Shown: positions 5,553 to 36,600 of the stretch, in pieces | Numbering within the stretch: position 1 is the stretch's first letter | How the letters are laid out: each line of letters opens with the position of its first letter | From: Bryobacterales bacterium | Lineage (GTDB): Bacteria; Acidobacteriota; Terriglobia; Bryobacterales; UBA6623 | Direction: 5' to 3' | Length of the DNA: 64,000 bases | NCBI GenBank assembly: GCA_965219605.1 | Contig: CBDCOC010000004.1 | Location: 28,000-91,999 of the forward strand | The notes under the pieces: generated by a model | The model's database searches: none | What the model was told of the DNA's origin: nothing | Seen by the model: only the letters and a program-made list of their open reading frames with translations | Translations under genes and position numbers: made by a program

Positions 5553-5564
5553 CCCTGTCTGCCA

Positions 5565-5844
5565 CCCGCCGCCAGCCCGTCGCCCAAGCCTGCTAGTGGC
5601 TAACGGCAAGTTCCACAAGCTCGCCCTCGTGGCTGTCATGCGCCGCTTGGCCTGCCTGCTCGACACCCTCTTGCGCGAAGCGCGAAGATCGCCTCTGGCA
5701 ACCCGAACCGCCCGCACGCCCTGCCGAGGCCCTCGCATGAATTGCCTGCTCCTCGCTGCCCGGCACTCCACGCCAGGCCCCCTCGCCTGCCACTGGCGCC
5801 CTCTTTTCCCGCTCCTGCCGCTTGACTTTCAACACGGAAGCTCT
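5565..5844 (+). pseudogene. IS110-family transposase C-terminal fragment plus element right end
   Basis: KLALVAVMRRLACLLDTLLRE matches the IS110-family C-terminus (KVALVAxMRKLL..LNAMLR). The nucleotide sequence is ~90% identical to the block at 42961-43189. Confidence 0.7.
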
Positions 5845-6100
5845 CGGATTGGTTGCTTTGCTGTGAAACTGCTAGACGCGGGGATGCAACAACCCCCACC
5901 CCGCTGTTGCGGGCTGACAACGTCTTAGGTCCGTTGCGAAGCGAAGACGAGTCGCGTCGATCTCAGGGGCAGTCCCGATTTATGGACCAAGGCAGCGGAT
6001 CACGGAATCCACTCTACCTCGCACCAACGGACAGCGGCACTCTCTTGAGTGCTCCTCGCAGTACACACAGTTTCATGCCCTCGGGGTGATTGCCCGCCGC

Positions 6101-20365: not shown

Positions 20366-20392
20366 TTAGACTGTAAAAGGAGAGTATGCAAG

Positions 20393-23300
20393 ATGCGCAG
20401 GATTATACGCAACTTGAGCCTGCTCGCTGTTGCGGCACTGCTGGCAAGCACCCCAGTGATGCGACTTGATGCGCAGGTTCTCAAGGGCCAGATTCTCGGG
20501 ACCATTACCGATCCGTCGGGTGCGGTGATTCCCGGGGCAGCCATCACCCTGATGGAGACGAACACGAACGCCGCGCGCGCAGGCGAGACCAATGAGAGCG
20601 GCCTGTACGTGTTCCCCAATCTTGACCCGGGCATGTACCGGGTCGAAGTCGCTTCCGACGGATTCAGCACCTCGGTGCGAGGGGGCGTTGAGTTGCAGCC
20701 GAACTCGACCGTGCGAGTCGACTTGGAACTGACGCCTGGCGCGGTGACCGAGACCGTCACCGTGACCGGCGCCCCGCCGGTGTTGCAGACCGACCGCTCC
20801 GACACCAGCGTCAAGATCGAGAACAAGCAGCTCAAGGAGCTGCCCCTGCTCTTCAACCGCAATTACCAGGGACTGCTGGCCACCGTGCCCGGCGTGGGTC
20901 GGCTGACACGTCCGCACTCGCAGTTCTACAACTCGCAGGATTCGCTGGCGGTGCGTGTCAACGGCCAAGGGCGCCAGTACAACAACTTCCAGATCGAAGG
21001 GATCGAGAACAAGATCGACAACGGCAACCTGACGGCGTTGGTGCCACCCGCGGAAGCGATCCAGACGGTCGACATTTCCACTTCCAACTTCGACCCTGAA
21101 TTCGGCAATGCCGGCGGATCCGTCGTGAATGTCACGCTCCGCTCGGGAACCAACGAATTCCACGGAAGCGTGTTCGCCTTCCATCGCAACGAGAACGCCC
21201 AAGCTACGCAGGTCTTCGCAACGAGCAAGGCGCACACCGTGTACAACCAGTTCGGCTTCACGGCAGGCGGCCCCATCATTCGCAACAAGATGTTCATCTT
21301 CGGCGATTACCAAGGCAGTCGTGACCACCTCGGCCAGGTCGAGCTGGACCGCATCCCGACCACCCCGTTCCGCACGGGCGATTTCTCGGGCGAAGGGGCC
21401 ACGATCTACGACCCTCTGACCGGTGACAGCGAGGGTAACGGACGCACCGCTTTCATGGGCAACACGCTCCCGGCGAGCCGCATCAGCCCGATCGCGGCGG
21501 CGATGGTCGGCTTCATCCCGCAGCCCAACCGTCCCGGGGAGATCGGTTCCCGCAACCAGGAGATCCCGGTCGTCCGCATCAAGAACATCAATGCATTCGA
21601 CGTGAAGTACGACTATGTCGTGAACCCCAGCGGGAGGCTGACGTTCCGCTATAGCTACCAGAAGGCGACGGTGACGGATTGCGGCCTCTACGGCCCCAAT
21701 TGCGGCATCTACGGCGGCCCGCGCAACAACGGCTTTTCCGGAAGCGGCCCGGCACGGACGCAGAGCCCGATGCTTTCCTATTCGCACGTGTTCTCGCCGA
21801 CGTTCGTCTGGGAGGGCCGCTTCGGCATCGTCCGCAATCGCAACGACGCCATCAATGCCGACACCGGCTTGCGGACATCCGAGGAAATCGGTATCCCCGG
21901 CGTCAACATCAACGAGTGGACAAGCGGCCTCTCCGAGGTTCGGGTCAACGGCTTGGACCGGCCTCTGGTCGGCTTCTCGCCATCCCTGCCGTGGGCGCGG
22001 TCGGTCACGTTCTTCGGCATTGTCAACAACTTCACCAAGACGTTCGGTAACCACGTGACGCGCTTCGGGTTCGAGGTGCGGCGAGAGCGCAACGACCTGC
22101 TGCAGACGCAAACGTTCAACCCGCGCGGCCGGTTCACCTTCGCGCGCGGCCAGACCGCCTGCAACGCCGAGTGCGACGGGCCCAACCAGACGCTGGGCAT
22201 CGCCAACGCCTTCGCCGCCTTCCTGCTTGACCAGCCGGGCGGCCACGGCCGCGACTTGGATGTCCAGTTCCCGACGCGGCGCGAGCTGATTCTGGCGGGG
22301 TACATCCAAGACAAGTGGCAGGCCAGCTCGAAGCTCACGTTCGATTTCGGCTTGCGCCTGGAGCGCGAGAACCCCTCCAAGCCGCGCTTCCCCGGCAGCT
22401 ACTCGAACTACAATCCGCTCACGAATGCGCTGGAGCTGAGCGGCATCGGCGGCCGGCCGGAGGACAACGGCATCCGGCCGGACCTCGGGTGGGGGCCGCG
22501 CCTCGGCATCGCATACCGTCTGAACGACAAGACCGTGCTGCGCACGGGCTACGGCATTAGCTTCATCAACCGCATCATGGGGCAGCAGAACTTCCCGGTC
22601 AAGCAGAACAACGCCTTCGTGGCGCCGAACTCGTTCACCGCGTCGGGCGCCATGGCCGAGGGATTCCCCGCGTTCCAAGCGTTCGCCATCCCCGACAACG
22701 GGCTGATCGACTTGAGCGCGCCGGAGAACGCCCTCTTTGCGCGGCAGAACTTCAACTGGGTCAACCCAGACATGAGGCGGCCCTATGTGCAGAGCTGGAA
22801 TTTCGCGATCCAGCGCACGCTGGTCTACGACTTCACGCTGGATCTGGCGTACGTCGGTAACCACGGCGTCAACAACCAGAGCAATTGGGAGTACAACGCC
22901 GCGACCACGCCGGGCACGGGCAATGCGACCCGTCCGCTCAACGTCCTCTTCGGGCGCACGCAGAACACCAGCACGCGGATCGGCACGCACACCTATTACA
23001 ACTCGCTGCAGATGAAGATCAACCGCCGCTTCAGCCAGGGCTTCTCGATGACGAACGCCTACACTTGGAGCAAGGGCCTGAACTTCAGCGACGACACGGG
23101 CGGGCTGCAGGTCGACGGCATCACCGGCGCGTTCCACACCAACAAGGGGCGCACGAACCAAGACCGCCGGCACACGTGGGTGTCGAGCTACACCTACGAA
23201 CTGCCGTTCGGCAAGGGCAAGCGGTTCCTGAAGAGCGGGCCCGGACGCTGGCTGTTCGGCGACTGGCAGTTGCAGGGCATCGTGAGCGCCATGAGCGGCG

Positions 23301-23719
23301 AGCCCTTTACTGTCACCGCGCCCGGCTCGACGCTGAACGCCGCCGGCAACAGCCAGCGCGCCGACGTGGTTGGCACGCCGACCCGCATTGGGGAAATCGC
23401 GGGGCCGAACGGGACCGCTCTGTGGTTCACGACCGACGCCTTCGCCGTGCCGAAGCAGGACACCCTCGGCGATGCCGGCCGCGAGATCCTGGACGGGCCG
23501 GGCCTGTTCAACTGGGACTTCTCGGTGTTCCGGCGCTTTCCGGTCGCGGCCTTGGGCGAGAGCGCGGCTCTGACGTTCCGTCTGGAGTCGTTCAACTTCA
23601 CCAACACACCGCACTTCAACAATCCCAACGGGGACGTTTCCAATCGCAATTTCGGACGCGTGCAGAGCGCCGCCTCGGATCAGCGGCAGTTCCAGTTCGG
23701 GTTGACGTTGCGATTCTAG
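20393..23719 (+). CDS. TonB-dependent receptor with N-terminal carboxypeptidase-regulatory-like domain (Acidobacteria type)
   Basis: 1108 aa. The signal peptide is followed by QVLKGQILGTITDPSGAVIPGAAITL...ETNESGLYVFPNLDPGMYRVEV (CarbopepD_reg-like). Plug and barrel regions follow, and the C-terminus ends in F (QFGLTLRF). Confidence 0.85.
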   Translation: MRRIIRNLSLLAVAALLASTPVMRLDAQVLKGQILGTITDPSGAVIPGAAITLMETNTNAARAGETNESGLYVFPNLDPGMYRVEVASDGFSTSVRGGVELQPNSTVRVDLELTPGAVTETVTVTGAPPVLQTDRSDTSVKIENKQLKELPLLFNRNYQGLLATVPGVGRLTRPHSQFYNSQDSLAVRVNGQGRQYNNFQIEGIENKIDNGNLTALVPPAEAIQTVDISTSNFDPEFGNAGGSVVNVTLRSGTNEFHGSVFAFHRNENAQATQVFATSKAHTVYNQFGFTAGGPIIRNKMFIFGDYQGSRDHLGQVELDRIPTTPFRTGDFSGEGATIYDPLTGDSEGNGRTAFMGNTLPASRISPIAAAMVGFIPQPNRPGEIGSRNQEIPVVRIKNINAFDVKYDYVVNPSGRLTFRYSYQKATVTDCGLYGPNCGIYGGPRNNGFSGSGPARTQSPMLSYSHVFSPTFVWEGRFGIVRNRNDAINADTGLRTSEEIGIPGVNINEWTSGLSEVRVNGLDRPLVGFSPSLPWARSVTFFGIVNNFTKTFGNHVTRFGFEVRRERNDLLQTQTFNPRGRFTFARGQTACNAECDGPNQTLGIANAFAAFLLDQPGGHGRDLDVQFPTRRELILAGYIQDKWQASSKLTFDFGLRLERENPSKPRFPGSYSNYNPLTNALELSGIGGRPEDNGIRPDLGWGPRLGIAYRLNDKTVLRTGYGISFINRIMGQQNFPVKQNNAFVAPNSFTASGAMAEGFPAFQAFAIPDNGLIDLSAPENALFARQNFNWVNPDMRRPYVQSWNFAIQRTLVYDFTLDLAYVGNHGVNNQSNWEYNAATTPGTGNATRPLNVLFGRTQNTSTRIGTHTYYNSLQMKINRRFSQGFSMTNAYTWSKGLNFSDDTGGLQVDGITGAFHTNKGRTNQDRRHTWVSSYTYELPFGKGKRFLKSGPGRWLFGDWQLQGIVSAMSGEPFTVTAPGSTLNAAGNSQRADVVGTPTRIGEIAGPNGTALWFTTDAFAVPKQDTLGDAGREILDGPGLFNWDFSVFRRFPVAALGESAALTFRLESFNFTNTPHFNNPNGDVSNRNFGRVQSAASDQRQFQFGLTLRF

Positions 23720-23810
23720 GGCGGGTGCCTGCCCGCTCACGTCGCGGGGCGGGATCTTGCCTCGCGGCCTTGTGACTCACAGGCGTGCGGCAAGCTGTTA
23801 AGCTTGTCGC

Positions 23811-26126
23811 ATGCCTACGACTGCTTGCTTGATGCGGCGCCGGCCGGCCCCTGCAACCGTCCTGCTGCCGCTGCTCGCGGCCCTCGTTGTGTCCGTCCTG
23901 CCCGCCCAGTCGCCCGAGGCCCAAGCGGGCGCCCCGGCGCTTGTCACCGAGGCCACGCTCGCTGCGGCGCACACATTGTCCCCGGTCATCATGGCCGATG
24001 CTGCCAGCTGGGAAGTGCGCCGGACGCGAGCTTCGCAGGAAGGTTTCGACTTCTACATCGACGCCTTGGTCGGATCATTCCAGTTCGGCAGTTTCGGAGT
24101 CGAGAGAGCCTTGAATGGATTATTCCTGCCCATAAGCCTGCCTGGGGCGTTTTCTCACGGGGATCCCGCCGGCACCAATCCTTCCGCAGGCTTGCTGTCT
24201 TGGTCCGGCCGCGCTCTCGCGCGCGACGTCAGCGGGAACGAGACCGAGGGGCACGCTGTCATCGGCGAGGTGGAGATTTCGATCGCAAGCTATGCGGACC
24301 CGCACGCCAGCATTTCGCTCCTCGACTTGGTCGATCTCAACACAGGCGCGTCAAGAGCGGCAATCGGATGGGCCGAGGTGCCGGTGCGAGACGGAGTGTT
24401 CAGCGCAGTAGCGGCCGGCGAAGGGGTGCAAGGCCGGTTCTACGGCCAAAGACATGTCGGTGCCGGGGGCATCTTTCGGGCAGACGGGCTTGCCGGTGCG
24501 TTCGGCGCCCAGCGCGAGCATCCTGAGATGCTCGGAGGCGTAGTCGTGCCCCACGGCCCGTTTGCCGGCGCCTCAAACGCGGCGACCCGGCTCATGGGCG
24601 TTGTGTTGGAGGGGCCGCCGGTGCTCCACGAAGCGGTGCTTGGACGGCAGGGCGGTTGGTTTTCCCCCTCGGGCCCTCGACCCGTGCTGGAAGCAGACTC
24701 GATGGAAGGAGCGTTTGCCGTGCTGGAAGCAGACGCGGGGGAAGGAGCGTTTGACATCGGCGCGATGGGCTTGCGGGTGCATGGTGTTGTGGAGAGCGAG
24801 GAAGCGCTGCACGGCGCGATGTCCATGACAGTCCGGCTTGATCTGGGCTTTGACGAATTGCCACCTGCCGCGTTGGTCTCGCGCATTGACGCGCTAGCTG
24901 GCCGAAGCGGGCAGGCGGGATATTCGGTGATCACCAACACGGCCGGGTTCGATGCCCCGCAGGGGGGCGAGCTGTTGCCGGCGGGCCCCGATGCGACTAC
25001 AACGCTAACCGCTGGCGGGTTCGGGCGCTTGGCGAATCCGGCGGGGAGCGTTGGCCGCTGGAGCGGCGTGCTGCAGGCGGAAGACACCAGTGACTCCCGC
25101 GGGCAGGGAAACCAGGTTCGCGGGGCTGTCTCGATCAGCGTGCATCTCGAGTCCGAGCCGAAAGTAGTCGTCGAGTTTTCCAATCTAGCCTACCAAGGCG
25201 TGACGCGTACCCGCGAGGACATCTCCTGGACATCGATCCCGCTCTCTAAGGGCAACTTCGTTGTCGAGGATGGCGCCAACCTGCTGCGGGGAGCCTTTGC
25301 CGGAGCGGACGGCGCGAACGTGGCCGGCATCTTCGAATGGGAAGGGCTGTCGGGAGGATTCGCCGCCTCTGCCACGAGCCGAGACGTTCCGCCGCCACCA
25401 CGCCGACAGGCCGCCTCTAGCCCCGCCGCTGAAGACGTTCAGCTGCTAGTGAGCGCTCCTCTGCTCACTCCTGCCGGGGGTGGCAGTGCTGCCGCTGCCA
25501 ATGCGCAGGTCGCAGCCATCGAGAGACTGCTGGTCGGTGCGCGGCCCGAAGATCCCAGCGGCGTGGCAACCGAAGGCGTACAGGTCGAGCGACTGCACCA
25601 TGCGGAAGGCGCGGCGGGGAATGCCGCATCTTCTGTCCGTAGCTTTATCCGCGGTTTTGGAGGGTGGCTGGAGGAAGGCTACTTCGGCGCGGCTGGCAGC
25701 TATAGCGTCGGCGAAGACCCCGTCGGCCATCGCTTGTCGTCCGCAGCGATGATGGTGGGCGCCGGCTCTGCGTCCAATCCGCCCGCGGTGGATGCCACTT
25801 GGGCAGGCGAGATGGTAGGCATCGACATCAGCCGGTCGGCAACCGACGGAAACTTGGTTCGCGGCCGCGCCAGTGTCCGTCTGCGCAGCGCAGCTCACCT
25901 GCAGGCGACGGTTGCCTTCACGGAAATCGTCGACCTGACGGGCGGCCAAGGTCGGGGCGATATGGAGTGGCGCGGCATTCCGGTATTCGACGGCTATTTC
26001 GAGTCTGCCAGCTCGCACAGCCAGATTGCGGCGAGATTCTTGGGCCGTGACCACCGCGAGGTGGCCGGCACGTTTGAATGGAACATGATCCAAGGCGCGT
26101 TCGGCGCCCGGATTACAGAACCGTAG
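23811..26126 (+). CDS. Secreted protein with repeated TbpB-like beta-barrel/handle domains
   Basis: Recurrent motifs GRFYGQRHVGAGGIF...GAFGAQR, NVAGIFEWEGLSGGFAA and ARFLGRDHREVAGTFEWNMIQGAFGAR resemble the transferrin-binding protein B (TbpB_B_D) C-terminal barrel signature FYG..A.E.AG.F. The signal peptide is type I with no lipobox. Confidence 0.55.
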   Translation: MPTTACLMRRRPAPATVLLPLLAALVVSVLPAQSPEAQAGAPALVTEATLAAAHTLSPVIMADAASWEVRRTRASQEGFDFYIDALVGSFQFGSFGVERALNGLFLPISLPGAFSHGDPAGTNPSAGLLSWSGRALARDVSGNETEGHAVIGEVEISIASYADPHASISLLDLVDLNTGASRAAIGWAEVPVRDGVFSAVAAGEGVQGRFYGQRHVGAGGIFRADGLAGAFGAQREHPEMLGGVVVPHGPFAGASNAATRLMGVVLEGPPVLHEAVLGRQGGWFSPSGPRPVLEADSMEGAFAVLEADAGEGAFDIGAMGLRVHGVVESEEALHGAMSMTVRLDLGFDELPPAALVSRIDALAGRSGQAGYSVITNTAGFDAPQGGELLPAGPDATTTLTAGGFGRLANPAGSVGRWSGVLQAEDTSDSRGQGNQVRGAVSISVHLESEPKVVVEFSNLAYQGVTRTREDISWTSIPLSKGNFVVEDGANLLRGAFAGADGANVAGIFEWEGLSGGFAASATSRDVPPPPRRQAASSPAAEDVQLLVSAPLLTPAGGGSAAAANAQVAAIERLLVGARPEDPSGVATEGVQVERLHHAEGAAGNAASSVRSFIRGFGGWLEEGYFGAAGSYSVGEDPVGHRLSSAAMMVGAGSASNPPAVDATWAGEMVGIDISRSATDGNLVRGRASVRLRSAAHLQATVAFTEIVDLTGGQGRGDMEWRGIPVFDGYFESASSHSQIAARFLGRDHREVAGTFEWNMIQGAFGARITEP

Positions 26127-26194
26127 CGTCACGGGTACGACGGCGCACGGGGCGTTGCCTTGCCAGCCTGTGACACCGGCGGCCGCCCGGCCCT

Positions 26195-26710
26195 TCAATA
26201 GACTGGCGTCCCGTAAGGGACGGGCGTTTCGACTCGCCGAATCTCGCTAACGCCGGCAATCTTCCAAGTACTCCCCGCGGCCTCGAGGTAAACCTGCTGG
26301 ACCTCGTTGCGGTCCGCGTAGACATACTCCACCCGCACCCGGGCCTTGCTGCCGGACTTCTCGGGCGCGTTCATGGCGATCCCCTTGATATCCTCGTTGC
26401 GCTCCCGGAGGAACTCTGAGAAGCGTTCGGCGCCCATTTCCTCCATGCTCTGGCGAAGCGTGCGTTCCAGATGTCCCGCATAGCATGCCAGATAGTCATG
26501 CACCAGGCCATCGCGGGCCGCATCCAGCATGGCGTAGATGACATCGCGCGGCTCGTCGGATGCATTGGAATCGCCATGGCCGAAAAAACTGCTGCCGGCG
26601 CTGCCGCCAAAGCCGAGGGAATCGAAACCGCCCCGATACCAAGCGATGGTGGCTAAGCCGGCAAGGATGAAGATGGCTGTCAGGACTTGCGCCTTGGCGT
26701 CCTTGCTCAT
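26195..26710 (-). CDS. Membrane-anchored hypothetical protein co-operonic with hflK
   Basis: 171 aa with an N-terminal transmembrane segment (VLTAIFILAGLATIAW). The start overlaps the hflK stop by 4 bp. Confidence 0.5.
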   Translation of the reverse strand: MSKDAKAQVLTAIFILAGLATIAWYRGGFDSLGFGGSAGSSFFGHGDSNASDEPRDVIYAMLDAARDGLVHDYLACYAGHLERTLRQSMEEMGAERFSEFLRERNEDIKGIAMNAPEKSGSKARVRVEYVYADRNEVQQVYLEAAGSTWKIAGVSEIRRVETPVPYGTPVY

Positions 26711-27696
26711 GGCGCTGCTTGGCGGCCGCTGCCTCGCCGGACGATATTCAGGTCTAGGTTGCCGTTCTCGTCCACGATGGTCTTGCGCAGGCGCGGCAAG
26801 ATCTCTTCCATCGTCTCGAGGAACAGCCGGCTGCGCGTCACCTCGGGGTTGCGGGCGTATTCGGCTGCCAGTTTCTCGAACCGGGCGGCATCCCCGCGCG
26901 CCTGCTGGATACGGCGCTCGCGGTAGCCCTGGGCTGCCGACAGCATCTGCTGCGCCCGGCCCCTGGCCCGGGGGAGAAGGTCATTGGCGTAGCCCTGGGC
27001 CTCGTTGACGATCCGCGCCGCGTCGGCGCGCGCCGACGCGACGTCCCGGAACGCGTCGGCCGCCTCGGCGGGGGGCGTCACCGAGCGGATATTCACCGTT
27101 GAGACCAGCACGCCCAGCTCGTGACGGTCGATCAGCTCTTGCGCGTGCCGGCGCACCGCCTCTTGGATCGCGATCTTCTCCGTGGTCAGGACCTCGTCCA
27201 CCGCCCGCGCGGAGATCTGCCGCCCGAGAGATGCCTCCACCGCGTTGGCGACGGCCCGGTCCACTGCGGCCGCGCGGAAAAGGTACCTTGCCGGCTCGGC
27301 AATGCTGTACTGCGCGACCGCCCGGACGCCGAGGATGTTCTGGTCTCCGCTGAGAAACTGCGCAAGCGCCGGATCGGCGGGCAGGGCATTGGCCTCGTCG
27401 GCAAGCTCCCCGCCGATGAACGCGCGCTTCAGCTCGCGGACCTTCAGCTTGCGGACCCGGCCTACCGGACGCGGCCAGTGCCAGCCCACGCCCGGCATGA
27501 CGCGATCATCCGCCAGCGCGCCGAAAGTCGTGAGCACGGCCTGCTGCTCCGTGCGCACCACGTAGATGCCCGAGGCCAGCCACAGTGCCGCCAGCGCAGC
27601 TGCCAGGCGGGGCCCGGAGATCTGCCGCAGAGCAGCGGTGAGGCGCCCGGGCGCTGCGCCGGCCGCCGACGGCCGCGGGTGCGCGTGTTCGTGCAT
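26707..27696 (-). CDS. hflK: Protease modulator HflK (SPFH/band-7)
   Basis: 329 aa. An N-terminal transmembrane segment is followed by an SPFH core and a coiled-coil C-terminus (ADAARIVNEAQGYANDLLPRARG). Confidence 0.8.
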   Translation of the reverse strand: MHEHAHPRPSAAGAAPGRLTAALRQISGPRLAAALAALWLASGIYVVRTEQQAVLTTFGALADDRVMPGVGWHWPRPVGRVRKLKVRELKRAFIGGELADEANALPADPALAQFLSGDQNILGVRAVAQYSIAEPARYLFRAAAVDRAVANAVEASLGRQISARAVDEVLTTEKIAIQEAVRRHAQELIDRHELGVLVSTVNIRSVTPPAEAADAFRDVASARADAARIVNEAQGYANDLLPRARGRAQQMLSAAQGYRERRIQQARGDAARFEKLAAEYARNPEVTRSRLFLETMEEILPRLRKTIVDENGNLDLNIVRRGSGRQAAP

Positions 27697-27705
27697 TGGC
27701 CGCTG

Positions 27706-28482
27706 CTATTGCCCCTTGGTCAGCAGCCGCAGCAGTTCTGAATCGGCGCTGAGGATCACGGTCGTATCTTTGTCCAGGGCCTTGCGGTAGGCCTCCAGCG
27801 TGCGGGTCAGCTTGAACAAAGACTGGTTGCGGGAGTAGGCCGCGCCGTAGACGCGAGCGGCCGCCGCGTCGCCCTCGCCCTTCGTCGTCTCGGCCTCCTT
27901 GTAGGCCTTGGCCAGGATCTCCTCCCGCTGCCGGTCGGCCTCGGCCCGGATGCGCAGGGCCTGCTCCTCGCCCTCGGCGCGGTACTGCCGGGCGATCCGC
28001 TCGCGCTCGGCGCGCATGCGCGCGTACACGCTCTGTTTGTTCTGCTCGGGAAGGTTCAGGCGCTTGAGGCGCACGTCCGCGATGCGGATGCCGTACTCCG
28101 CCAAGGCTGCCGCTCCGCTGCGGGCGGCCAGCTGGTCGAGCACTTGTTCCGCCTTGACCGGTACTGGCGCGGCCGACACGATTTCTTCCAGGTCGAGACC
28201 GGCGATCGTCGCTGCCAGGCCTGACCAGACCAGGTCGTGCAGCCGCATCTCGGCCGCCCTCTCGTTGCCCACGGCCTGCACGAAAGACTGCGGGTCGGCG
28301 ATTTGCCACAAGGCGTAGGTGTCGATGCTGAGGTTCTTCTTGTCCTTGGTCAGAAACTCGGAGCGCGGCGGGTTGTAGACGCGCAGGCGCCGGTCGAACC
28401 GCTGCACTTGATGCAGCAGGGGCGCCTTGAAGCGCAGGCCGGCCTCGGTCACGGTGCGGATCGGCTTGCCGAACTGCGTCAC
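27706..28482 (-). CDS. hflC: Protease modulator HflC (SPFH). It begins at GTG and lacks the usual N-terminal TM helix, so the 5' end may be frameshifted.
   Basis: FGKPIRTVTEAGLRFKAPLL..DRRLRVYNP..FLTKDKKNLSIDTYALWQIADPQSF aligns with E. coli HflC residues ~30-120. The in-frame upstream region has no ATG, and a hydrophobic stretch sits in another frame. Confidence 0.7.
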   Translation of the reverse strand: MTQFGKPIRTVTEAGLRFKAPLLHQVQRFDRRLRVYNPPRSEFLTKDKKNLSIDTYALWQIADPQSFVQAVGNERAAEMRLHDLVWSGLAATIAGLDLEEIVSAAPVPVKAEQVLDQLAARSGAAALAEYGIRIADVRLKRLNLPEQNKQSVYARMRAERERIARQYRAEGEEQALRIRAEADRQREEILAKAYKEAETTKGEGDAAAARVYGAAYSRNQSLFKLTRTLEAYRKALDKDTTVILSADSELLRLLTKGQ

Positions 28483-28760
28483 CAGGACGAATTCGGTCTC
28501 TCGTACGGTGAAGAGGGAGGACCAAGCCAGTCGCGCCCCCGGGCGGGGCCCGGATCATTCGGTTGGAAACACGTGGCTTGGCGTAGAATCAGAGCGGAGG
28601 GTTCCGGCAGTCAAGCCCCGTAATTTCATTGGTGCAGTATTTGCCCCAAAGCCAGTCTGGGTCCGGGCGAGCGATCATTCACTAGCGAGGTTTCTTCGGA
28701 AGCACTCCTCAACACCAGCATTGCAGAGCAATTGCCAACCCGGGCCGGGGCCTTCCGTGT

Positions 28761-30182
28761 GTGAGACAGGAGCAGCAGGAGGGAGATATGGCAAGAGAGC
28801 AGCCGGAGCGGGACCTGCCGGTGCAGCGCCCGCAGGTGGCGGGGGTGGACCTCGGCAGCCGCGAGCACTGGGCCTGCGGGCCGCCACGTGCGGACGGCAG
28901 GCCCAACGTGCGCACGTTCGGCACGACCACCGCGCAGTTGGACGCGTTGGCGGACTGGCTGGCGGCCGAAGGCGTGGAATCGGTGGCGCTGGAGAGCACG
29001 TATGTGTACTGGATCCCATTGCACGAGTTGCTGGAGGAGCGCGGTTTCGAGGTGTTGCTGGTCAATGCGCGGCAGTTGAAGAACGTGCCGGGGCGCAAGA
29101 CCGACATGCTGGACTGCCAGTGGCTACAGCGGCTGCACAGTTGCGGCCTGCTGCGGGGCTCGTTCCGGCCGCCCGAGACGGTGACGCAGCTGCGGGCGCT
29201 GCACCGGCAGTGGCAGAGCTTGGTGGCGGAGCGCACGCGCTGCGTGCAATGGATGCAGCGGGCGCTGGATCAGATGAACGTGCAGGTGCATCGGGCGGTG
29301 ACGGATCTGACGGGGCAGACAGGCATGGCGATCGTGCGTGCGATCGTGGCGGGGCAGCGCGATGCGGAGCAGTTGGCGCAGTTGCGCTCGGGGCGCTGCA
29401 AGCACACGGAGGAGCAGTTCGTGGAGTACCTGAGCGGCAACTGGCGGGAGGAGCACCTGTTCAACCTGCGCAGTGCGCTGCGGCTGTACGACGCGGTGCA
29501 GGCCGAGATGGACGGTTACGAGCAGAAGCTGCAAGAGGATCTGCAGCAGCAGGCGGGCGAGGAATGCAGCGCGGAGGAGTGTCCGCGGCACCCGAACGCG
29601 GCCAAGGAGAAAGCCATCCGAAGGCGGGGTGAGCAGCCGCTGCGGACGGCGCTGTACCGCTACGCGAGCGTGGATCTGACGCGCATCGACGGGATTAGCG
29701 CGGGGGCGGCGCGCACGATCCTGACCGAGGTGGGGACGGATCTGGGGTCGTTTCCGAGCGAGCGGCATTTCACGAGCTGGCTGGGCCTGGCGCCGCGGCA
29801 CGCGGTATCGGGCGGGCAGCAGTTGGCGGGCAAGCGGCAGCGCGGGCTGGGAGCGACGCGCACGTCGAACGCGCTGCGCATGGCGGCGACGGCGCTGATC
29901 CGGTCCAAGTCGGCGCTGGGGGCGGCGCTGCGCCGCAAGGCGCGGCACAAGGGGATGAAGACGGCGGTGTTCGCCACCGCCCGCAAGCTGGCGGTGTTGG
30001 TATACCGCATGCTGCGCTTCGGCCAGGACTACGTTGACGAGGGCGAGGCGGCCTACGAGCAGCGCCATCGCCAACGGACCTTGGCCTACCTCAAAACGAC
30101 AGCTAAGGATCTCGGCTACCAGCTGCTTCCCGACACTGCACAAACTGCTTCCCGGGACGCTGTGGGGGCAGGGGCGGGCTAG
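28761..30182 (+). CDS. IS110-family transposase (second, distinct element; IS1111-like subgroup is a guess)
   Basis: 473 aa. The N-terminal VAGVDLGSREHWA (DEDD domain) is followed by a Transposase_20 region (LDLTRIDGISAGAARTILTEVG..FPSERHFTSWLGLAP). The likely start is Met 28788. Confidence 0.8.
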   Translation: MRQEQQEGDMAREQPERDLPVQRPQVAGVDLGSREHWACGPPRADGRPNVRTFGTTTAQLDALADWLAAEGVESVALESTYVYWIPLHELLEERGFEVLLVNARQLKNVPGRKTDMLDCQWLQRLHSCGLLRGSFRPPETVTQLRALHRQWQSLVAERTRCVQWMQRALDQMNVQVHRAVTDLTGQTGMAIVRAIVAGQRDAEQLAQLRSGRCKHTEEQFVEYLSGNWREEHLFNLRSALRLYDAVQAEMDGYEQKLQEDLQQQAGEECSAEECPRHPNAAKEKAIRRRGEQPLRTALYRYASVDLTRIDGISAGAARTILTEVGTDLGSFPSERHFTSWLGLAPRHAVSGGQQLAGKRQRGLGATRTSNALRMAATALIRSKSALGAALRRKARHKGMKTAVFATARKLAVLVYRMLRFGQDYVDEGEAAYEQRHRQRTLAYLKTTAKDLGYQLLPDTAQTASRDAVGAGAG

Positions 30183-30345
30183 GGTGTTTCACACCAGCTG
30201 CTTCCCGACACTGCACAAACTGCTTCCCGGGACGCTGTGGGGGCAGGGGCGGGCTAGGGTGTTTCACACCAGCTGCTTCCCGACACTGCACAAACTGCTT
30301 CCCGGGACGCTGTGGGGGCAGGGGCGGGCTAGGGTGTTTCACACC
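30121..30345. repeat. Perfect 3 x 75-bp tandem direct repeat spanning the 3' end of the IS110 transposase gene
   Basis: The unit AGCTGCTTCCCGACACTGCACAAACTGCTTCCCGGGACGCTGTGGGGGCAGGGGCGGGCTAGGGTGTTTCACACC is repeated exactly at 30121, 30196 and 30271. The transposase stop codon TAG lies inside unit 1. Confidence 0.9.
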
Positions 30346-30479
30346 AGGACCAGGGCTGCCAGCCCAAGCAGGTGCTTGCGATAGCGCGCGGACAGTCCGC
30401 GCCAGGCGAGCGGGGCCCGGTGGCGGCGGTCGAGCGCGTGCGAGCCGTGCTCGCGGGCATGGTGGTGGTCATGCATGGT

Positions 30480-33400
30480 CTATTCCCCCAGTGCGGCCGG
30501 TTCGAACGGCGGCGGAGGCTGCTGCGTCCGGGTCGCGGGCGGCGCGAGCAGCACGCCTTCCTCCATGGCCCACAGCGTGCGGCGCCCCCCGGAAGAGTCG
30601 ATGATGAGCTTCTTGCGCCCGGGCAGGATTTCTTCCATGGCCTCTAGGTACAGGCGCGTGGAGGTCGGGCCGGGAGCCGTGCGATAGGCCGTCTCCAACT
30701 GTTGGAAGCGAGACGCGTCGCCGCCGGCTCGATCTCTGCGGCTGGCCATGTAGCCTTCGGCCTCTCGCACCAGCGCTTCGCCTTGGCCGCGGGCAAGCGC
30801 GACCTGCTCGTTGGCGTAGCCTTCGGCCTCGTTGATCATCCGGACCTTTTCCTCCAAGGCCCCGGCAACCTGGCGGAAGGCATCGACGACCTCTACCGAC
30901 GGATGCATGTCTTGGAAGCGCACCTGGCGCACGCGCACTCCAGTGCCATAGGTCGCGAATCTCTGCTGCAGCTCTTCAGCGGCGCGCTGCTCGGCCGCGC
31001 GCCGCCCGCTGGTCAAGAGCGCGTCGAGCGCGACCGTGTTGACCACGCTGCGCAGCGCTGCTTCCGAGGCGGCGCGGATGACGGCCTCGGCGTCCAGTTG
31101 CCGGAAGATGTAATCGGCGGGCCGCTCGATGTCGTAATGCACCACGGCGGTCATCTCGATCATGTTCTGGTCGCCTGTCAGCATCAGGGTCTCTTCGTCT
31201 TCGAGCTGGATGCGGCCGTCCCGGTGCTGGATGTTCCACTCGTAGGCTGGCGGCTGGCTGAACGCCGTGGACTGCGCGGTGCGAAAGCCGATCTCAACGG
31301 CGCGGATTTCCCGTGCGCGGACGCGCGTCAAGCGGTCAACGGGCCATGGCAGCTTGACATGCAGGCCCGGTTCCTTATCGGGCAGCACCCGGCGCCCGAA
31401 ACGCTCGACCACGCCAACTTCCTCGGTGCGGACCGTGAAGACTGCCGTGGACGCCCACAGTGCGAGCAGGGCGGCCGTGGCGGGCTTGGCCAGCAGGTTG
31501 CGGTTTTCGATCAGCCAGGCGAAGCCGGCGGCCGGATCGACGCTGCGCAGCACGTTCAGGGCCGACTGCCAGAGTGGGGTGCTCCCGAGCTGGGCGCGCA
31601 GCCGGCCCCAGCGCGAGGCCTGGCCTGCCGGCCGCTCGACGCGCAGCAGGCGCACCGAGTTGAGCATGACGAAGATCGAGGAGACTTGGTGGACGCCGGC
31701 AGCGAGAGCCGGCCCCATCCAGCCGATGCCGGCGATGTAGACGGCGACGACATTCACCACTCCGGCGAAGAGGATGATGTTCTGCCACACGGTCGTAACT
31801 GCCCGCTTGGAAACCCCGAACAGCTTGGGCAGCTTGCCGATACCCGGGTTGAGGTCCACGACATCGGCCGCCTCGGCCGCGATGTCGGCCCCGGATCCGC
31901 AAATGGCGACGCCCACATTGGCCGCCGCCAGGGCGGGTGCGTCGTTGACGCCATCTCCGACCATGGCGACCTTGCGGCCTTGGGACTGCAGCTGCTTGAT
32001 GCGGTCAAGCTTTTGCTCTGGCAGCAGTTCGGCTTCCACGTGCGTGATGCCGATCACGCGGGCCATCGCATCCGCCGCCTTGCGGCGGTCTCCGGTGAGC
32101 AGGATGATGTTGCTGATGCCCAGATCTTCGATCTCATGGATCGCGGCATGGGCGCCATGGCGCGGCGTGTCGCGCAACAGAATGGCGCCAGCGCAGCGGT
32201 CGCCGCGGGCGACCAGCACAGGAGTCGCGCCGGCGCGGTCGGAGGCAGACAGGTAGCTCTCGAGACCGCAGATGCCGTGATCGTTCAGGAACGCCTCGTT
32301 CCCGGCGCGGACGATGTGTCCGCCGTGCAGGCATTGGGCTCCGCGCCCCGGCACGATCTGCGCGTCTTGGAATTCCCCGACGGCAAGGCCGCGCTGCTCG
32401 GCGGCGCGCACGACAACCTTGGCCAGAGGGTGGTCCGAGCTTGCTTCCGCGACCGCCCCCAGTGCGAGCACCTGCTCCTCGGTGTGGCCCGGAGCGGCCA
32501 GGATATCGACGATCTCGAACTCCCCGGTGGTCAAGGTGCCGGTCTTGTCGAAGACGATGGTGTCGATCTGGGAGGCCGCCTGCACGACCTGTCCGCCCCG
32601 GGCAAGCAGCCCCCGGCGCGCCAAGCCGCCGATGGCGGCGACCATCGCGGCTGGCGTGGCTAGGATCAGAGCGCAGGGGCAGCCGACGATCAGGACGGCC
32701 ACGGCTCGGCGCGTGCGCTCGGCTGTCTCGACATCGCTCGAGAGCAGGTACACCGCGCCGGCTGCCAGCAGGATGGCAGGCAGGAAGTAACGGGCATAGC
32801 GGTCGGCCGCCCTCACCACCGGTGCCGTGCGATGGTCGCGGGCCTCTTCTACCAAGTGAATCAGGCGCGCCAGCGTGGACTCCTCGGCGGCATGCGTCAC
32901 CCGGATGTGGAGCAAGCCGTGACCGTTGAGGGTGCCCGAAAACACCTCGTCGCCCGCACCCTTGTCGCGGGGCACGGATTCGCCGGTGATCGGGCTCTCG
33001 TCGACCGATGATGCGCCCCGTTCGACCGTGCCGTCAGCAGCGATGCGCTCGCCGGCCCGGACGACAATCACGTCGTCGGGGTCCAAGTTCTCGACATGGA
33101 CTTCGACCTCCTTGCCTGCGCGCAGCACGCGGGCGTGGTGCGGCAGCTGGTCCACGAAGCGGTGGATCGCCCGTTCTGTCCGCCCGGCAGCCCAGGCCTC
33201 CAGACCCTCGCCCAGCAGCATGATGAACATAGCCTCGGCGGCAGCGAGGTACTCGCCGATGGCGAGGGCGGCGCCGGCAGCGATCACGATCGCGAGATCC
33301 GCCGAGATCTTGCGGTCGAGCAGTTCGGCAATCGCCCGGTAGAAGGTCTTGTATCCTGCCAGCACTGCCAGCAGGATCGCGGTGTCGATGCCAAGCAGGG

Positions 33401-33521
33401 AATCGAAGAGGCCCGATAGGTTCAGGAGCAGCAGGACGCCGACGACCGCCGTGAACCCGACGTACTTGACCTGTTCCCGGCGGTCGCGATTAATCGCGTG
33501 GTCCTCGGAGACTACATGCAC
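30480..33521 (-). CDS. P1B-type (heavy-metal) P-type ATPase fused to a C-terminal SPFH/HflK-like domain
   Basis: 1013 aa with no stop between domains. The ATPase hallmarks are CPC (VGCPCALILATP), DKTGTLT and GDGVNDAPAL, and the protein has no N-terminal metal-binding domain. After a TM linker, the C-terminal ~330 aa form an SPFH domain with the HflK-like coiled coil RMINEAEGYANEQVALARGQGEA. Confidence 0.75.
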   Translation of the reverse strand: MHVVSEDHAINRDRREQVKYVGFTAVVGVLLLLNLSGLFDSLLGIDTAILLAVLAGYKTFYRAIAELLDRKISADLAIVIAAGAALAIGEYLAAAEAMFIMLLGEGLEAWAAGRTERAIHRFVDQLPHHARVLRAGKEVEVHVENLDPDDVIVVRAGERIAADGTVERGASSVDESPITGESVPRDKGAGDEVFSGTLNGHGLLHIRVTHAAEESTLARLIHLVEEARDHRTAPVVRAADRYARYFLPAILLAAGAVYLLSSDVETAERTRRAVAVLIVGCPCALILATPAAMVAAIGGLARRGLLARGGQVVQAASQIDTIVFDKTGTLTTGEFEIVDILAAPGHTEEQVLALGAVAEASSDHPLAKVVVRAAEQRGLAVGEFQDAQIVPGRGAQCLHGGHIVRAGNEAFLNDHGICGLESYLSASDRAGATPVLVARGDRCAGAILLRDTPRHGAHAAIHEIEDLGISNIILLTGDRRKAADAMARVIGITHVEAELLPEQKLDRIKQLQSQGRKVAMVGDGVNDAPALAAANVGVAICGSGADIAAEAADVVDLNPGIGKLPKLFGVSKRAVTTVWQNIILFAGVVNVVAVYIAGIGWMGPALAAGVHQVSSIFVMLNSVRLLRVERPAGQASRWGRLRAQLGSTPLWQSALNVLRSVDPAAGFAWLIENRNLLAKPATAALLALWASTAVFTVRTEEVGVVERFGRRVLPDKEPGLHVKLPWPVDRLTRVRAREIRAVEIGFRTAQSTAFSQPPAYEWNIQHRDGRIQLEDEETLMLTGDQNMIEMTAVVHYDIERPADYIFRQLDAEAVIRAASEAALRSVVNTVALDALLTSGRRAAEQRAAEELQQRFATYGTGVRVRQVRFQDMHPSVEVVDAFRQVAGALEEKVRMINEAEGYANEQVALARGQGEALVREAEGYMASRRDRAGGDASRFQQLETAYRTAPGPTSTRLYLEAMEEILPGRKKLIIDSSGGRRTLWAMEEGVLLAPPATRTQQPPPPFEPAALGE

Positions 33522-33699
33522 AGGTAGACAAAGATAGCAGAGGCGGTCGCTTTCCGAGCATGTGTGCCCTGCTGGAAGCTCCTACTGCTGAGGTGCAGCC
33601 AGTGTGCGGTGCTTGCCGCCTCGTAACTGCCCGCTACTAAGCAGCGCAGCACCTTGCCGGCATGCCGAAGCCGAGGCAGGTGGCTCGCAATCCGCCTGA

Positions 33700-36600
33700 T
33701 CAGCCGCCGCGCTGCAACTCGGCCTGCTTGAGCACCCACTCGCGAATTACGCCGTAACCGCGGTCGCTCGCCTCGTAGCGAACGCCGCCCTGGTGCCCGT
33801 CTTCCTCGCCGGATTGAATGTTCAGCGGCTTGCGCAGGAACTTACTGCTCTCCACGTCGTGCAGGTCGACGCGCTCTTGCATGCGCCGGTAATTGCCCAG
33901 CAGCGCCTCGGGCGGGATGTAGCCGGCTGCGTCCGGAGCCTCCAAGTACAGCGTCGGCACGCGCCCCGGCACGCCGTGGCAAGAGATGCAGGCGCGGTTG
34001 TCCCGCGGATCGATGCGCGTCATCTCTGTGAACACGTAGTCGCGGAAGTGAATGATGTCGGCGATCCACTCGTCGGTGTCGGATAGCGGGCGGACAGCGC
34101 TGCCAGGTTGCCCGCGGCTGCCTTCGCTGATGATCTCGCGCAAGCGCTTGCCGTAGATCTTGTCATCGCTGTTGAGGATGTTCTGGATGCGGTTGCGGTA
34201 GACCGGGCTCGGTTCGTGCTCGATCCAGGCCGCCAGGGCCCGCAACACCTCGGGGTGGCGCCGCAGGGCGGTCTTGTTGGCGAGCGCGATTGCCTGCTTG
34301 CGCACGCTCTCGGGGGAGTCCGCGGCGAACCAGGCCGTGAACATACCGATCAATCTGTCCTTGGCCTCCTTGATGGGGTCGATCACGTCCACGCCCAGCT
34401 CGTCCGTAGTGAACAGCGAGCCGGCGATCTCGCCGGGCTCGATCTTCAGGTAGTCCAGCCCGAAAATGTAGTTGGGCTCGGCTTCGTCGCTGGCCCCGAC
34501 CATGCGGAAGGTCAGCCGGTTGCGCCCCTCGCGGAACTCATGCACGCCCAGCGACACGGGGCCAAGCGCGGTGAGCTGCGCGCGGTAGAGGTCGATGGCG
34601 CCTCCGATGCCCTCGCCGTTGAGGAACGGCTGGACGATGCCCATTTCGCGGTCGTGCAGGAACGCTGCGACAAGCTCGTAACGGCCGGCTGCGGGCGCAT
34701 GCACGCCGAATGTGAGCTCATTTCCCGGCAGTCCTTCGCGCCACCACAGGACGGTGTTCAGGCTTGCCAGGCCGTCCGGCACGAGTTGCTTGGTCGTCCG
34801 CCCGCCAGTCAGATCCAAAACCTCCAGATCCTCGCCCTCGGTTGCGCCTTTGACGGCCTCTTCAAGCGTCGGCCCGGTTTCTTGGTAGCGAAGCATCCAT
34901 TCGGTTGACGGCAGCCAGAAGAGCGCGTCCCCGCCGACATGGTCGAAGGCGGAGCGACGGTGGAGCGTGGGGTTGTCGCCTAGGACCTTGCCCAGCAGCG
35001 CCGCCCTCCCGCCTTGCGCCGCGGAGCGGCCCCGCGCGCCGGGAGCCGGCCGGCCGAGCAGGTGCGTCGCGGCGGCGATCGGAGGCTGCCGCCCTGCCGG
35101 GACGAGCAGCCTGAAGAACTCGCGCTCGGTCTCCGCGCTATCCTCTCCCTCGCCGAATTGCCAGCGCACCCGGGACAGGAAACGGACGAGCGCCTCGGCA
35201 TCGGCCTGGCGTCCGGCCGCGAGGAATGCGTCCAGCTTGGCGAGCAGCGGCCGGATCGTGCCGGCATCGCCGCGGAGTCGCAGGGCGCTGGGATTGGACA
35301 GCGCCTTGGCCGCCGCCGCGACCTGTTCCAAATCGTCGCCTTGCAGGAGTTGCAGCAGGTGTCCCTGCAACGGAGCTGAATTCACGTTGGCGGCCCCTTG
35401 TAGCGCGATAGAGCGCCACGGCACCTGCCCGTCGTCGCTGCGCGTCTGGTAGACGTTGAGCAGGATGTCCCCGATCAGCTCGGTCGCGCCCGGTGTCGAA
35501 TAGCCGAGCTGGCCCGGGCCGCCATCGCCCCCGCGCTCCTCGAAATGGGTCGCCGCGACAGCCGCTAGGCGCTGCTCGAGCCGGTCACGGCGGATCCCCT
35601 CGCGCGAGCGGGCCGCCGCCAGCATCTGGTACAGGTCCTCCAACTCGCGATACTGCTGCGCGCGGTTGTCCCGGCCGGTCTGATTCGCGATCTGGCCGTT
35701 GACGATGAGCATGGAGGCGGTCGAGTAGCGCATCGCGTTCTCGACGTGGCCATTCCGCTCCGGGCGGAGCAGAGCACTGACCCAAGCGCGGTTGATGCGC
35801 TGCCGCAAGGGCGGGTTCCAGACCCACTGGCGCCAGGCCGACTTGAACGCATAGGCCCGCACGCCGGGGAAGGGATCCCGCATGGCGGCGGCGAGCAGGG
35901 AGGCCAGTTCGTTACGATCCACTCGCGAGCCCGGCCCGGCGAGATCGGCCCGCATGGTCAGCGCCTGCAGGACCGACTGGCGTGCGCGCTCGTCCCCGCC
36001 GCGGTAGGCGGCCAGCGCGGCCGGCCAGCCTTGGTCATCCAGAAGTAGCTGGCGCAAGGACCAAAAGGCCGCCTCGCGACAGGCCTTGACCGGGTCGGAC
36101 AGGCCTGCGACCAGCGCTGGAATGCCGCTGGCGGCCAGCGCTCCGCCTATGCCGAGATAGCCGTAGTAGCGGACTTGGGGCATTTCGTCCGCGCTGGCGT
36201 CGATCATCAGGTCGGCAAAGTCGGCCCTTCCGGTGGCTTGCAGCGCTCGCGCGCGCGACAGCCGTTGCAGCGGGGATTCGCCGGGTTGCGGTTCGAACTC
36301 GCTGCGCTCGAACGGCCGGGCATCGCCCGGGAACAGGCGGCTGAGGGCGCGGATGACATAGGCGTTGGTGACGAAGCCGGTCTGCGCCGAGCGGTTCCAG
36401 AGGCCGTACTCGAATTGCTTGCCGAGCAGCCACTGCACGGCGCGCCGGACGGGCGGGCTGTCCGGGCCGTGGCCCGCGGCTCGCAGCGCGATCAGGGATA
36501 CCGCCGTGGGCGCCGGATCCCCGTCCTCGTCGATCCGCTGCCAGGAGTCCGCGGCTTGGTCATGCACGCCCAGGTCGAATCCCCACGACCCGTCCTCCTG

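Follow-up and report, generated by a model that had tools for sequence, protein, structure and literature searches.

The 64-kb window examined here (64,000 nucleotides (nt) of contig CBDCOC010000004.1 from a Bryobacterales bacterium, to which all coordinates refer unless another contig is named) carries on its minus strand a gene in which a P1B-type metal-transporting ATPase runs, in one reading frame, into an HflK-type SPFH domain, at the head of an operon that also encodes an HflC, a free HflK and a 171-amino-acid (aa) protein. Comparison of homologous sequences indicates that this fusion is real and old and represents a deep, diversified family in at least five phyla. We think it rather probable that the operon specifies a metal pump built into an HflK/HflC-type scaffold, in which three SPFH paralogues would form one ring that carries the pump. 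The individual parts are well known and the sequences already stand in public databases under partial names, but fusion and operon are apparently undescribed: a search of full-text literature, which did not cover most subscription journals, found no fusion of an SPFH or HflK domain to a P-type ATPase, no three-paralogue operon, and neither the wandering His-rich tail nor the insertion that we describe below. The fusion gene and its parts are as follows.

30480..33521, minus strand: fusion gene (P1B-type ATPase, cytoplasmic linker, transmembrane helix and HflK-type SPFH domain), 1013 aa with a GTG start, from the open reading frame (ORF) and its translation, Pfam, NCBIfam and full-length homologues
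31644..33521, minus strand: ATPase module, residues 1-626, with eight membrane helices and A, P and N domains, from TIGR01525, PDB, AF2 and motifs
31503..31643, minus strand: cytoplasmic linker, residues 627-673 (~47 aa), Arg-rich, with three short predicted helices, from AF2
31431..31502, minus strand: ninth transmembrane helix, residues ~674-697, a predicted HflK-type membrane anchor with its N-terminus inside, from AF2 and the alignment to E. coli HflK
30480..31430, minus strand: HflK-type SPFH domain, long coiled coil and C-terminal assembly segment, residues 698-1013 plus stop, from TIGR01933
31152..31301, minus strand: insertion specific to the fused SPFH domain, residues ~741-790, from alignments

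The ORF (33521..30480) lies in a region of operon genes that is GC-rich (65-70%), contains no internal stop, and ends with a TAG codon at 30482-30480. Pfam recognizes E1-E2_ATPase at residues 126-303, Hydrolase at 319-535 and Band_7 at 696-902, and both halves exceed the relevant NCBIfam cut-offs, the ATPase part scoring 552.6 bits against a curated threshold of 346.25 for TIGR01525 (ATPase-IB_hvy, residues 75-625) and the SPFH part 200.1 bits against an equivalog threshold of 159.4 for TIGR01933 (hflK, residues 694-978). The catalytic motifs ITGES (178-182), CPC (281-283), DKTGT (325-329) and GDGVNDAPAL are all present; on the minus strand, CPC is encoded at 32673-32681, DKTGT at 32535-32549, and H611-Q-V-S-S615 in the sixth transport-core membrane helix (M6) at 31677-31691. 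No HMA domain was found at the N-terminus in the Pfam scan, in agreement with the initial annotation of this stretch, which had read the ATPase as a complete heavy-metal pump without an N-terminal metal-binding domain.

The same architecture recurs far beyond this contig. A word-indexed search returned 120 clusters at 58-100% identity, in which all three Pfam domains are present in all but two truncated entries and 116 members measure 980-1035 aa, and a species-level scan (one genome per species) found the fusion encoded in 284 genomes. From these we kept 80 related loci, nearly all labelled Bryobacterales or other Acidobacteriota and one Acidimicrobiia, and every one of the 80 matches the fusion colinearly by tblastn, nearly full-length wherever the contig allows. 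An HMMER search, exhaustive over 1.84 billion representatives clustered at 50% identity, yielded 79 ATPase-SPFH fusions among the top 150 matches listed, as judged with our own domain hidden Markov models; 61 of these are at least 950 aa long, and identity to the query among the fusions in this set falls as low as 33%. Source names place the fusions in Acidobacteriota, Planctomycetota (including Gemmataceae), Elusimicrobiota, Candidatus Fervidibacterota and Candidatus Sumerlaeota, and their annotation reads 'FtsH protease activity modulator HflK' in some cases and 'Cu+-exporting ATPase' in others. The initial annotation had called the fusion rare, a description that these counts overturn; its other statements on the gene, namely that ATPase and SPFH parts form one frame without a stop and that a scaffold is thereby physically coupled to a pump, are borne out by the 1013-aa ORF, by the 116 clusters and 80 loci of like architecture, and by a link that is built into the polypeptide itself.

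The two halves also fit together as a membrane protein. An AF2 model built on a 52-sequence alignment, of moderate confidence (mean predicted local distance difference test (pLDDT) score 68.7), places eight membrane helices before residue 627, with the A, P and N domains and M6 at 604-626, followed by three cytoplasmic linker helices (637-645, 648-660 and 663-672), a ninth membrane helix at 674-691 with SPFH strands directly after it, and a 70-residue helix at 877-948. This model was used in place of Kyte-Doolittle hydropathy, which caught only six of the nine membrane helices. The predicted topology is coherent, in that M6 ends on the cytoplasmic side, an Arg-rich linker follows, and a single helix leads into the SPFH strands; since P1B pumps end in the cytoplasm and HflK starts there, the fusion would merely exchange the N-terminal tail of HflK for a pump. 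In an alignment of the fusion homologues the linker sequence is poorly conserved, and the gap between the ATPase and SPFH model matches has a median of 46 aa, with a range of 25-60 (n=61 full-length fusions).

The fused SPFH domain aligns to E. coli HflK (7vhp/7wi3) in two pieces, from the membrane helix through residue 356 (HflK 84-356, E 3e-37), with the transmembrane-helix region matching HflK residues 84-141. It shares with the free HflK the C-terminal motif LYLExMEEILP...K.I.D, the retention of which is consistent with a fused subunit that occupies a K position of a ring. Between the two aligned pieces lies an insertion of ~40 aa, across which AF2 confidence is low, within which E761, W762, Q765, H766 and G769 are invariant across 52 aligned fusions (58-100% identity). 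Among eight fused copies that we compared, seven show the insertion clearly and represent Acidobacteriota, Elusimicrobiota, Planctomycetota and Sumerlaeota, and the eighth (locus L082) shows it weakly; it was not found in any free HflK or HflC compared, nor in E. coli HflK. As a character apparently shared and derived, it argues for a single origin of the fusion.

The partner genes of the fusion are arranged as follows, hflC being split in this genome by an IS110-family insertion sequence (IS) to which we return below.

30345..30476, minus strand: 5' fragment of hflC, codons 1-44, encoding a His-rich cytoplasmic tail (MHDHHHAREHGSH...) and the first half of the membrane helix, from translation and a gap-free orthologue alignment
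27706..28527, minus strand: 3' fragment of hflC, codons 45-317, encoding the second half of the membrane helix onward, from TIGR01932
26707..27696, minus strand: free hflK paralogue, 329 aa, intact, from TIGR01933; the third gene in related loci
26195..26710, minus strand: gene for the 171-aa protein, with a predicted N-terminal membrane helix and NTF2-like domain, from AF2; the fourth gene in related loci

The order is thus fusion, hflC, hflK and 171-aa gene, all on the minus strand and closely packed: the hflC ATG at 30476 lies 3 nt past the fusion stop codon, hflK (222.2 bits to TIGR01933) starts 9 nt after the hflC stop, and the ATG of the 171-aa gene overlaps the hflK stop as ATGA. Even in its interrupted state hflC is recognizable, the 3' fragment scoring 204.3 bits to TIGR01932 against a cut-off of 134.4. 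Uninterrupted hflC, hflK and 171-aa genes follow the fusion, in that order, in nearly every related locus long enough to hold them, with the hflC frame opening directly past the fusion stop codon in most, and this strongly supports the proposal of the initial annotation that all of these genes descend from one operon. The same annotation had placed a canonical hflK-hflC pair 2 kb away from the fusion; the free genes in fact stand in the order hflC then hflK, and hflC is a split gene that begins 3 nt after the fusion. By gene order, the canonical K-then-C pair consists of the fused HflK-type domain and hflC, and the free hflK is an additional, third paralogue.

This order reaches beyond the Acidobacteriota. 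In Planctomycetota-type loci (L082, L083 and L086) and a Sumerlaeota locus (L085), two Band_7 genes come after the fusion, often with a 4-nt overlap; NCBIfam models identify them in all four loci as HflC-type first and HflK-type second, with some scores below the equivalog cut-offs, and the fusion-C-K order recurs in loci from three phyla; an Elusimicrobiota locus (L081) has its C-K pair upstream of the fusion. The flanking genes vary between lineages, which suggests that the module is self-contained. We found no conserved regulators, metallochaperones or ftsH in the flanks inspected, no FtsH-like gene in the 64-kb window by motif search, nothing above chance in a promoter and terminator scan of 26000-33900, and no Rfam match in 26000-34000.

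The fourth gene encodes a protein without a Pfam or NCBIfam match, the 959 homologues of which are unnamed or 'hypothetical' except for one PF12893 match and one 'ketosteroid isomerase-like' name. In its AF2 model (pLDDT 82.7 overall, above 90 across the domain), a membrane helix at the N-terminus is joined by a disordered spacer to a confidently predicted alpha+beta domain, to which the closest PDB entries are NTF2-like proteins, at weak E-values (2.5e-4 and weaker). On the strength of this modelled alpha+beta cone fold, we place the protein in the NTF2-like superfamily.

Indirect evidence that the SPFH proteins act together with the pump comes from His-rich segments that precede the membrane helices. 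In the nearest relatives, HflC starts with 30-50 residues of HxH/HD repeats (in locus L001, for example, MHDHHHTHEHSHSHDHQDGEDRHAHEHHSHGQHSHD), and in some Bryobacteraceae and Solibacteraceae loci the HflC tail is short and plain and a His-rich tail stands on the free HflK. If a tail is counted as His-rich when six or more His stand ahead of the membrane helix, 59 of 71 related loci have one, 50 on HflC only, eight on HflK only and one on both, leaving 12 with neither. The HflC tail of the window (30417-30476, minus strand) holds 8 His in 20 residues and is ~20 codons shorter than in the nearest relatives. Elsewhere a His-rich run occupies the N-terminus of the pump itself, in four representative clusters from other lineages, and a few fusion linkers are moderately or weakly His-enriched. 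A segment that moves between subunits and invariably stays cytoplasmic argues that the subunits act as one complex, and we regard this mobility as the best indirect evidence for such a complex.

The pump to which these subunits would be joined follows none of the classical patterns. The best PDB sequence match of the ATPase part is the P1B-4 pump sCoaT (7qbz, E 6e-100), while a Foldseek search with the AF2 model of the ATPase part gives target TM-scores of 0.88 for ZntA (4umw) and 0.83 for sCoaT (7qbz), with the ZntA/CopA set at 0.77-0.88. P1B-1 pumps are marked by YN in M5 and MxxSS in M6, and P1B-2 pumps by a Lys in M5 and DxG in M6. The fusion reads WQNIILFAGVVNVV in M5 and AAGVHQVSSIFVMLNS in M6 and lacks both signatures; MxxSS and DxG appear only in more distant, unfused matches. 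For P1B-2, a Lys/Asp pair has been described, and for P1B-4 the signature is SPC in M4 and HEGxT in M6 (PMC8880997); with CPC and H-Q-V-S-S at these positions, the fusion departs from the P1B-4 signature as well and has the His alone in common. This residue, H611, aligns with H657 of sCoaT, described as an internal counter-ion (PMC8880997). Representative fusions combine CPC with HQ..S in 48 cases and with HE..S in 14, a pattern by which the fused pumps appear to form a clade with its own signature that fits no classical P1B subgroup among P1B-1, P1B-2 and P1B-4. Nearly all fusions retain ITGES, DKTGT, GDGxNDAP, CPC and the M6 His, and from these motifs the pump is apparently catalytically competent. 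One representative cluster of 1008 aa (P0212) has GMSGA for DKTGT, SPR for CPC and LDGAA for TGES, apparently a dead pump in which the SPFH fusion has been kept.

The His-rich cytoplasmic segments suggest a His-favouring divalent metal as cargo. We tentatively propose that the transported ion is probably one of the divalent transition metals Zn, Co, Ni and Cd, and not Cu(I). A source name like 'Cu+-exporting ATPase' only reflects the label of a best hit, and we do not count it as evidence for the metal. In the Elusimicrobiota locus L081, CbiQ-type and ABC-ATPase genes, components of transporters of the energy-coupling factor (ECF)/cobalt type, lie between hflC-hflK and the fusion (4243-5909 of JBDRQF010000017.1); as a single case, they offer only a possible hint at the metal.

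In the mechanism that we favour, the fused K-type domain, HflC and the free HflK would co-assemble into an alternating K/C ring or cage, like that of E. coli HflK/C, with one or several pumps kept by their tether no more than a few nanometres from the membrane palisade of the ring. Not all K positions could be taken by the bulky fused subunit, and the free HflK would probably fill the others. The His-rich tails, carried by HflC in most Bryobacterales, by HflK in others and by the pump N-terminus in a few fusions of other lineages, may serve as a metal-collecting or metal-sensing element in trans for a pump without its own N-terminal metal-binding domain. We infer all four features, that is, co-assembly of the three SPFH proteins, tethering of the pump, dilution by HflK, and metal supply or sensing by the tails, from gene content and sequence. 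There is precedent for an SPFH cage around transporters in the reported stomatin cage that encloses AQP1 and UT-B (PMC12407830). An extension of the mechanism, which we consider speculative and unlikely as a whole, would make the ring of fused K, C and free K subunits a closed periplasmic vault: pumps tethered inside its footprint would fill the enclosed chamber rather than the bulk periplasm, the insertion with its Trp, His and Glu residues and the NTF2-like protein would receive the metal, and the His-rich tails would form an intake funnel. If true, the vault would be a protein-bounded compartment for sequestering metal or for loading exported metalloproteins.

Some of our findings weigh against the proposed pump-bearing ring. 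The tree of SPFH domains, a check named in the initial annotation, was informative in part: by neighbour-joining, the HflC-type domains separate as one clade, and the fused and free K-type domains do not sort apart, so that the tree leaves it undecided whether fusion occurred once or several times; the shared insertion is better evidence, and it speaks for a single origin. A Fervidibacterota locus has a single free Band_7 gene. Assignment of the metal from motif signatures failed, as CPC with H-Q/E-x-x-S matches none of P1B-1, P1B-2 or P1B-4. Finally, a His-rich segment is lacking in 12 of the 71 Bryobacterales loci and in most loci of other phyla, which makes the tail an elaboration and not a core requirement.

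The strongest competing account, improbable in our estimate yet to be taken seriously, is proteolytic control, in which the HflK-type moiety and its partners would hold the pump beside FtsH as a resident client of FtsH-HflK/C, turned over according to metal status or damage. In its favour, the scores of the fused domain and of its two partners reach or approach the equivalog cut-offs of HflK and HflC models whose names describe modulators of FtsH; FtsH is enclosed by HflK/C cages in solved E. coli structures (7vhp and 7wi3); and MgtA, which is likewise a P-type ATPase, is cited in PMC13220708 as a substrate of FtsH. Yet no ftsH turned up in the operon or the inspected flanks, nor elsewhere in the 64-kb window, a permanent covalent tie to a degradation machine would be an odd form of regulation, and proteolytic control leaves the His-rich tails and the conserved periplasmic insertion unexplained. 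Control of this kind is compatible with a pump built into the scaffold and does not exclude it.

We give still less weight to the view that the genes are independent neighbours, with the fused SPFH domain acting in cis on its own pump alone, by oligomerizing it (into a homomeric ring, say) or by regulating it, and hflC and hflK forming a co-transcribed housekeeping pair. Ordinary equivalog scores of hflC and hflK would suit such a pair, and some SPFH proteins, such as stomatin and the QmcA entries, form homo-oligomeric cages. This view has difficulty with an arrangement of fused K, C and K genes that overlap or nearly abut and that is kept across distant phyla while the flanks vary, and with a His-rich tail that alternates between HflC and HflK and sits on the pump in a few fusions, tying the partners to metal handling; it must also contend with the E. 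coli ring, in which HflK-type subunits alternate with HflC. That the contig merely merges an ATPase gene and an hflK gene through a sequencing or assembly frameshift, as a metagenome-type assembly and a poorly conserved linker might lead one to suspect, is practically negligible, being ruled out by conservation of the full-length ORF in more than 115 full-length clusters, in 80 of 80 loci from independent assemblies that include closed chromosomes, and in distant phyla, with a linker length held to 25-60 aa.

In this particular genome the module is likely impaired and the pump-scaffold fusion itself intact, owing to an insertion into hflC with the following components.

28528..30344, plus strand: IS110-family IS, 1817 base pairs (bp); excision restores hflC, and no repeat pair joins its ends
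28788..30182, plus strand: IS110 transposase coding sequence, 464 aa, antisense to the operon, from PF01548 and PF02371, NF033542 (248.8 bits against a cut-off of 140), and the start codon and ribosome-binding site as read
30118..30347, plus strand: perfect tandem repeat of 3 x 75 bp, in which the transposase 3' end and the adjoining IS right end are present three times

The element sits between hflC codons 44 and 45, in the middle of the membrane helix: the hflC frame runs for 44 codons (MHDHHHAREHGSH...LLGLAALVL) into the IS, resumes at 28527 (AWSSLFTVRETEFVLVTQFGKP...) and ends at 27706. Excising 28528-30344 (1817 bp) yields an in-frame hflC, and the joined DNA aligns without a gap at the junction to nine orthologous loci; CAG stands at both junctions, which leaves the ends ambiguous by 3 nt. 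The hflC of this operon is accordingly not intact, being split by the IS; the orthologues are intact. The initial annotation had taken the IS110 element and the 3 x 75-bp repeat to separate the fusion from an hflK-hflC pair. We considered an element lying between two operons and ruled it out by the hflC start 3 nt past the fusion stop and by the restoration of the gene on excision; the IS lies inside hflC, and the repeat is the triplicated right end of the IS. Inserted antisense in hflC, the element probably also blocks expression of hflK and the 171-aa gene through polarity.

The element belongs to the IS110 family, with DEDD_Tnp_IS110 and Transposase_20 domains and, in the repeat search, no terminal inverted repeats joining its two ends. 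Each 75-bp unit includes the last 65 nt of the transposase coding sequence (stop included) and the IS right end, has ACCAG at either end, and contains an imperfect palindrome of 28 nt; recombinase-mediated duplication and slipped duplication are both possible origins of the repeat. The left end (28531-28787) has ~260 nt of non-coding sequence before the transposase, with no Rfam match at E <= 0.1. IS110 elements encode a guide (bridge) RNA in that non-coding end. A weak tblastn match to the IS110 transposase at 2639-2878 (plus strand, 32% over 80 aa) may be the other IS110-family element counted in the initial annotation, and no second copy of the IS inserted in hflC was found in the window. 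Dispersed repeats at 84-98% identity occur at 5600-5843/42961-43189, 20123-20372/41916-42165/44416-44633 and 18836-18895/19944-20003, the first pair reading like the C-terminal end of another transposase gene.

Upstream of the fusion, 33700-38628 (minus strand) encodes a protein of 1642 aa that matches cytochrome c, HEAT-repeat and squalene-hopene-cyclase-C domains weakly, is syntenic in only part of the closer relatives and lies outside the conserved module. On the other side, both strands contain ORFs longer than 1100 aa at 20366-23740, an effect of the high GC content, with real domain matches only on the plus strand; the plus-strand ORF combines CarboxypepD_reg with an outer-membrane beta-barrel, resembles a TonB-dependent receptor, and precedes a gene of 771 aa oriented convergently with the operon.

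How SPFH rings and cages act on enclosed membrane proteins is a question shared by work on HflK/C, prohibitins, stomatins and flotillins. In the fusion, a client, here a P1B metal pump, is fixed to a scaffold subunit by a peptide bond and kept with two free paralogues in at least five phyla, and the operon offers a natural system with defined components in which the position of the client, the number of clients per ring and the effect of the ring on transport could be measured. The His-rich tail on a scaffold partner suggests a possible new route by which a P1B pump may be supplied with a metal-binding domain, in trans. Current annotation is misleading, as the names 'FtsH protease activity modulator HflK' and 'Cu+-exporting ATPase' are attached to these proteins.

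Among known systems, the nearest to the scaffold is the E. coli SPFH cage of HflK and HflC around FtsH (7vhp, 7wi3, 9cz1), which has the same layout of a helix with its N-terminus inside, a periplasmic SPFH domain, a long coiled coil and a C-terminal segment; as in the E. coli hflK-hflC operon, an HflC-type gene stands immediately after the fused HflK-type domain. In contrast to E. coli HflK, the cytoplasmic N-terminal tail is replaced in the fusion by a whole 626-aa P1B ATPase, a third SPFH paralogue (the free HflK) is encoded in the operon, the fused domain has an extra ~40-aa insertion with Trp and His, and no ftsH lies nearby. The pump resembles sCoaT (P1B-4, 7qbz; PMC8880997) in lacking a classical N-terminal metal-binding domain, in its M6 His and in its complete catalytic motifs, but differs from it in having CPC rather than SPC in M4 and H-Q/E-x-x-S rather than HEGxT in M6, in having Gln in most fusions at the position of the release glutamate E658, and in a C-terminal extension of ~390 aa. 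With ZntA (P1B-2) and CopA (P1B-1) (4umw, 4bbj, 3rfu) it shares the fold and the CPC in M4, whereas the M6 Asp of DxG, the M6 MxxSS and the HMA domain are missing and neither Lys nor YN is seen in M5. The inserted element is typical of the IS110 family (NF033542) in its DEDD and Transposase_20 domains, its lack of terminal inverted repeats and the short identical CAG core at both junctions, and unusual in its triplicated right end (3 x 75 bp); its non-coding left end gave no Rfam match. Finally, the stomatin cage with AQP1 and UT-B (PMC12407830) likewise associates an SPFH oligomer with specific membrane transporters, but there the association is non-covalent, eukaryotic and homo-oligomeric, whereas here the client is fused to the scaffold in a three-paralogue bacterial system.

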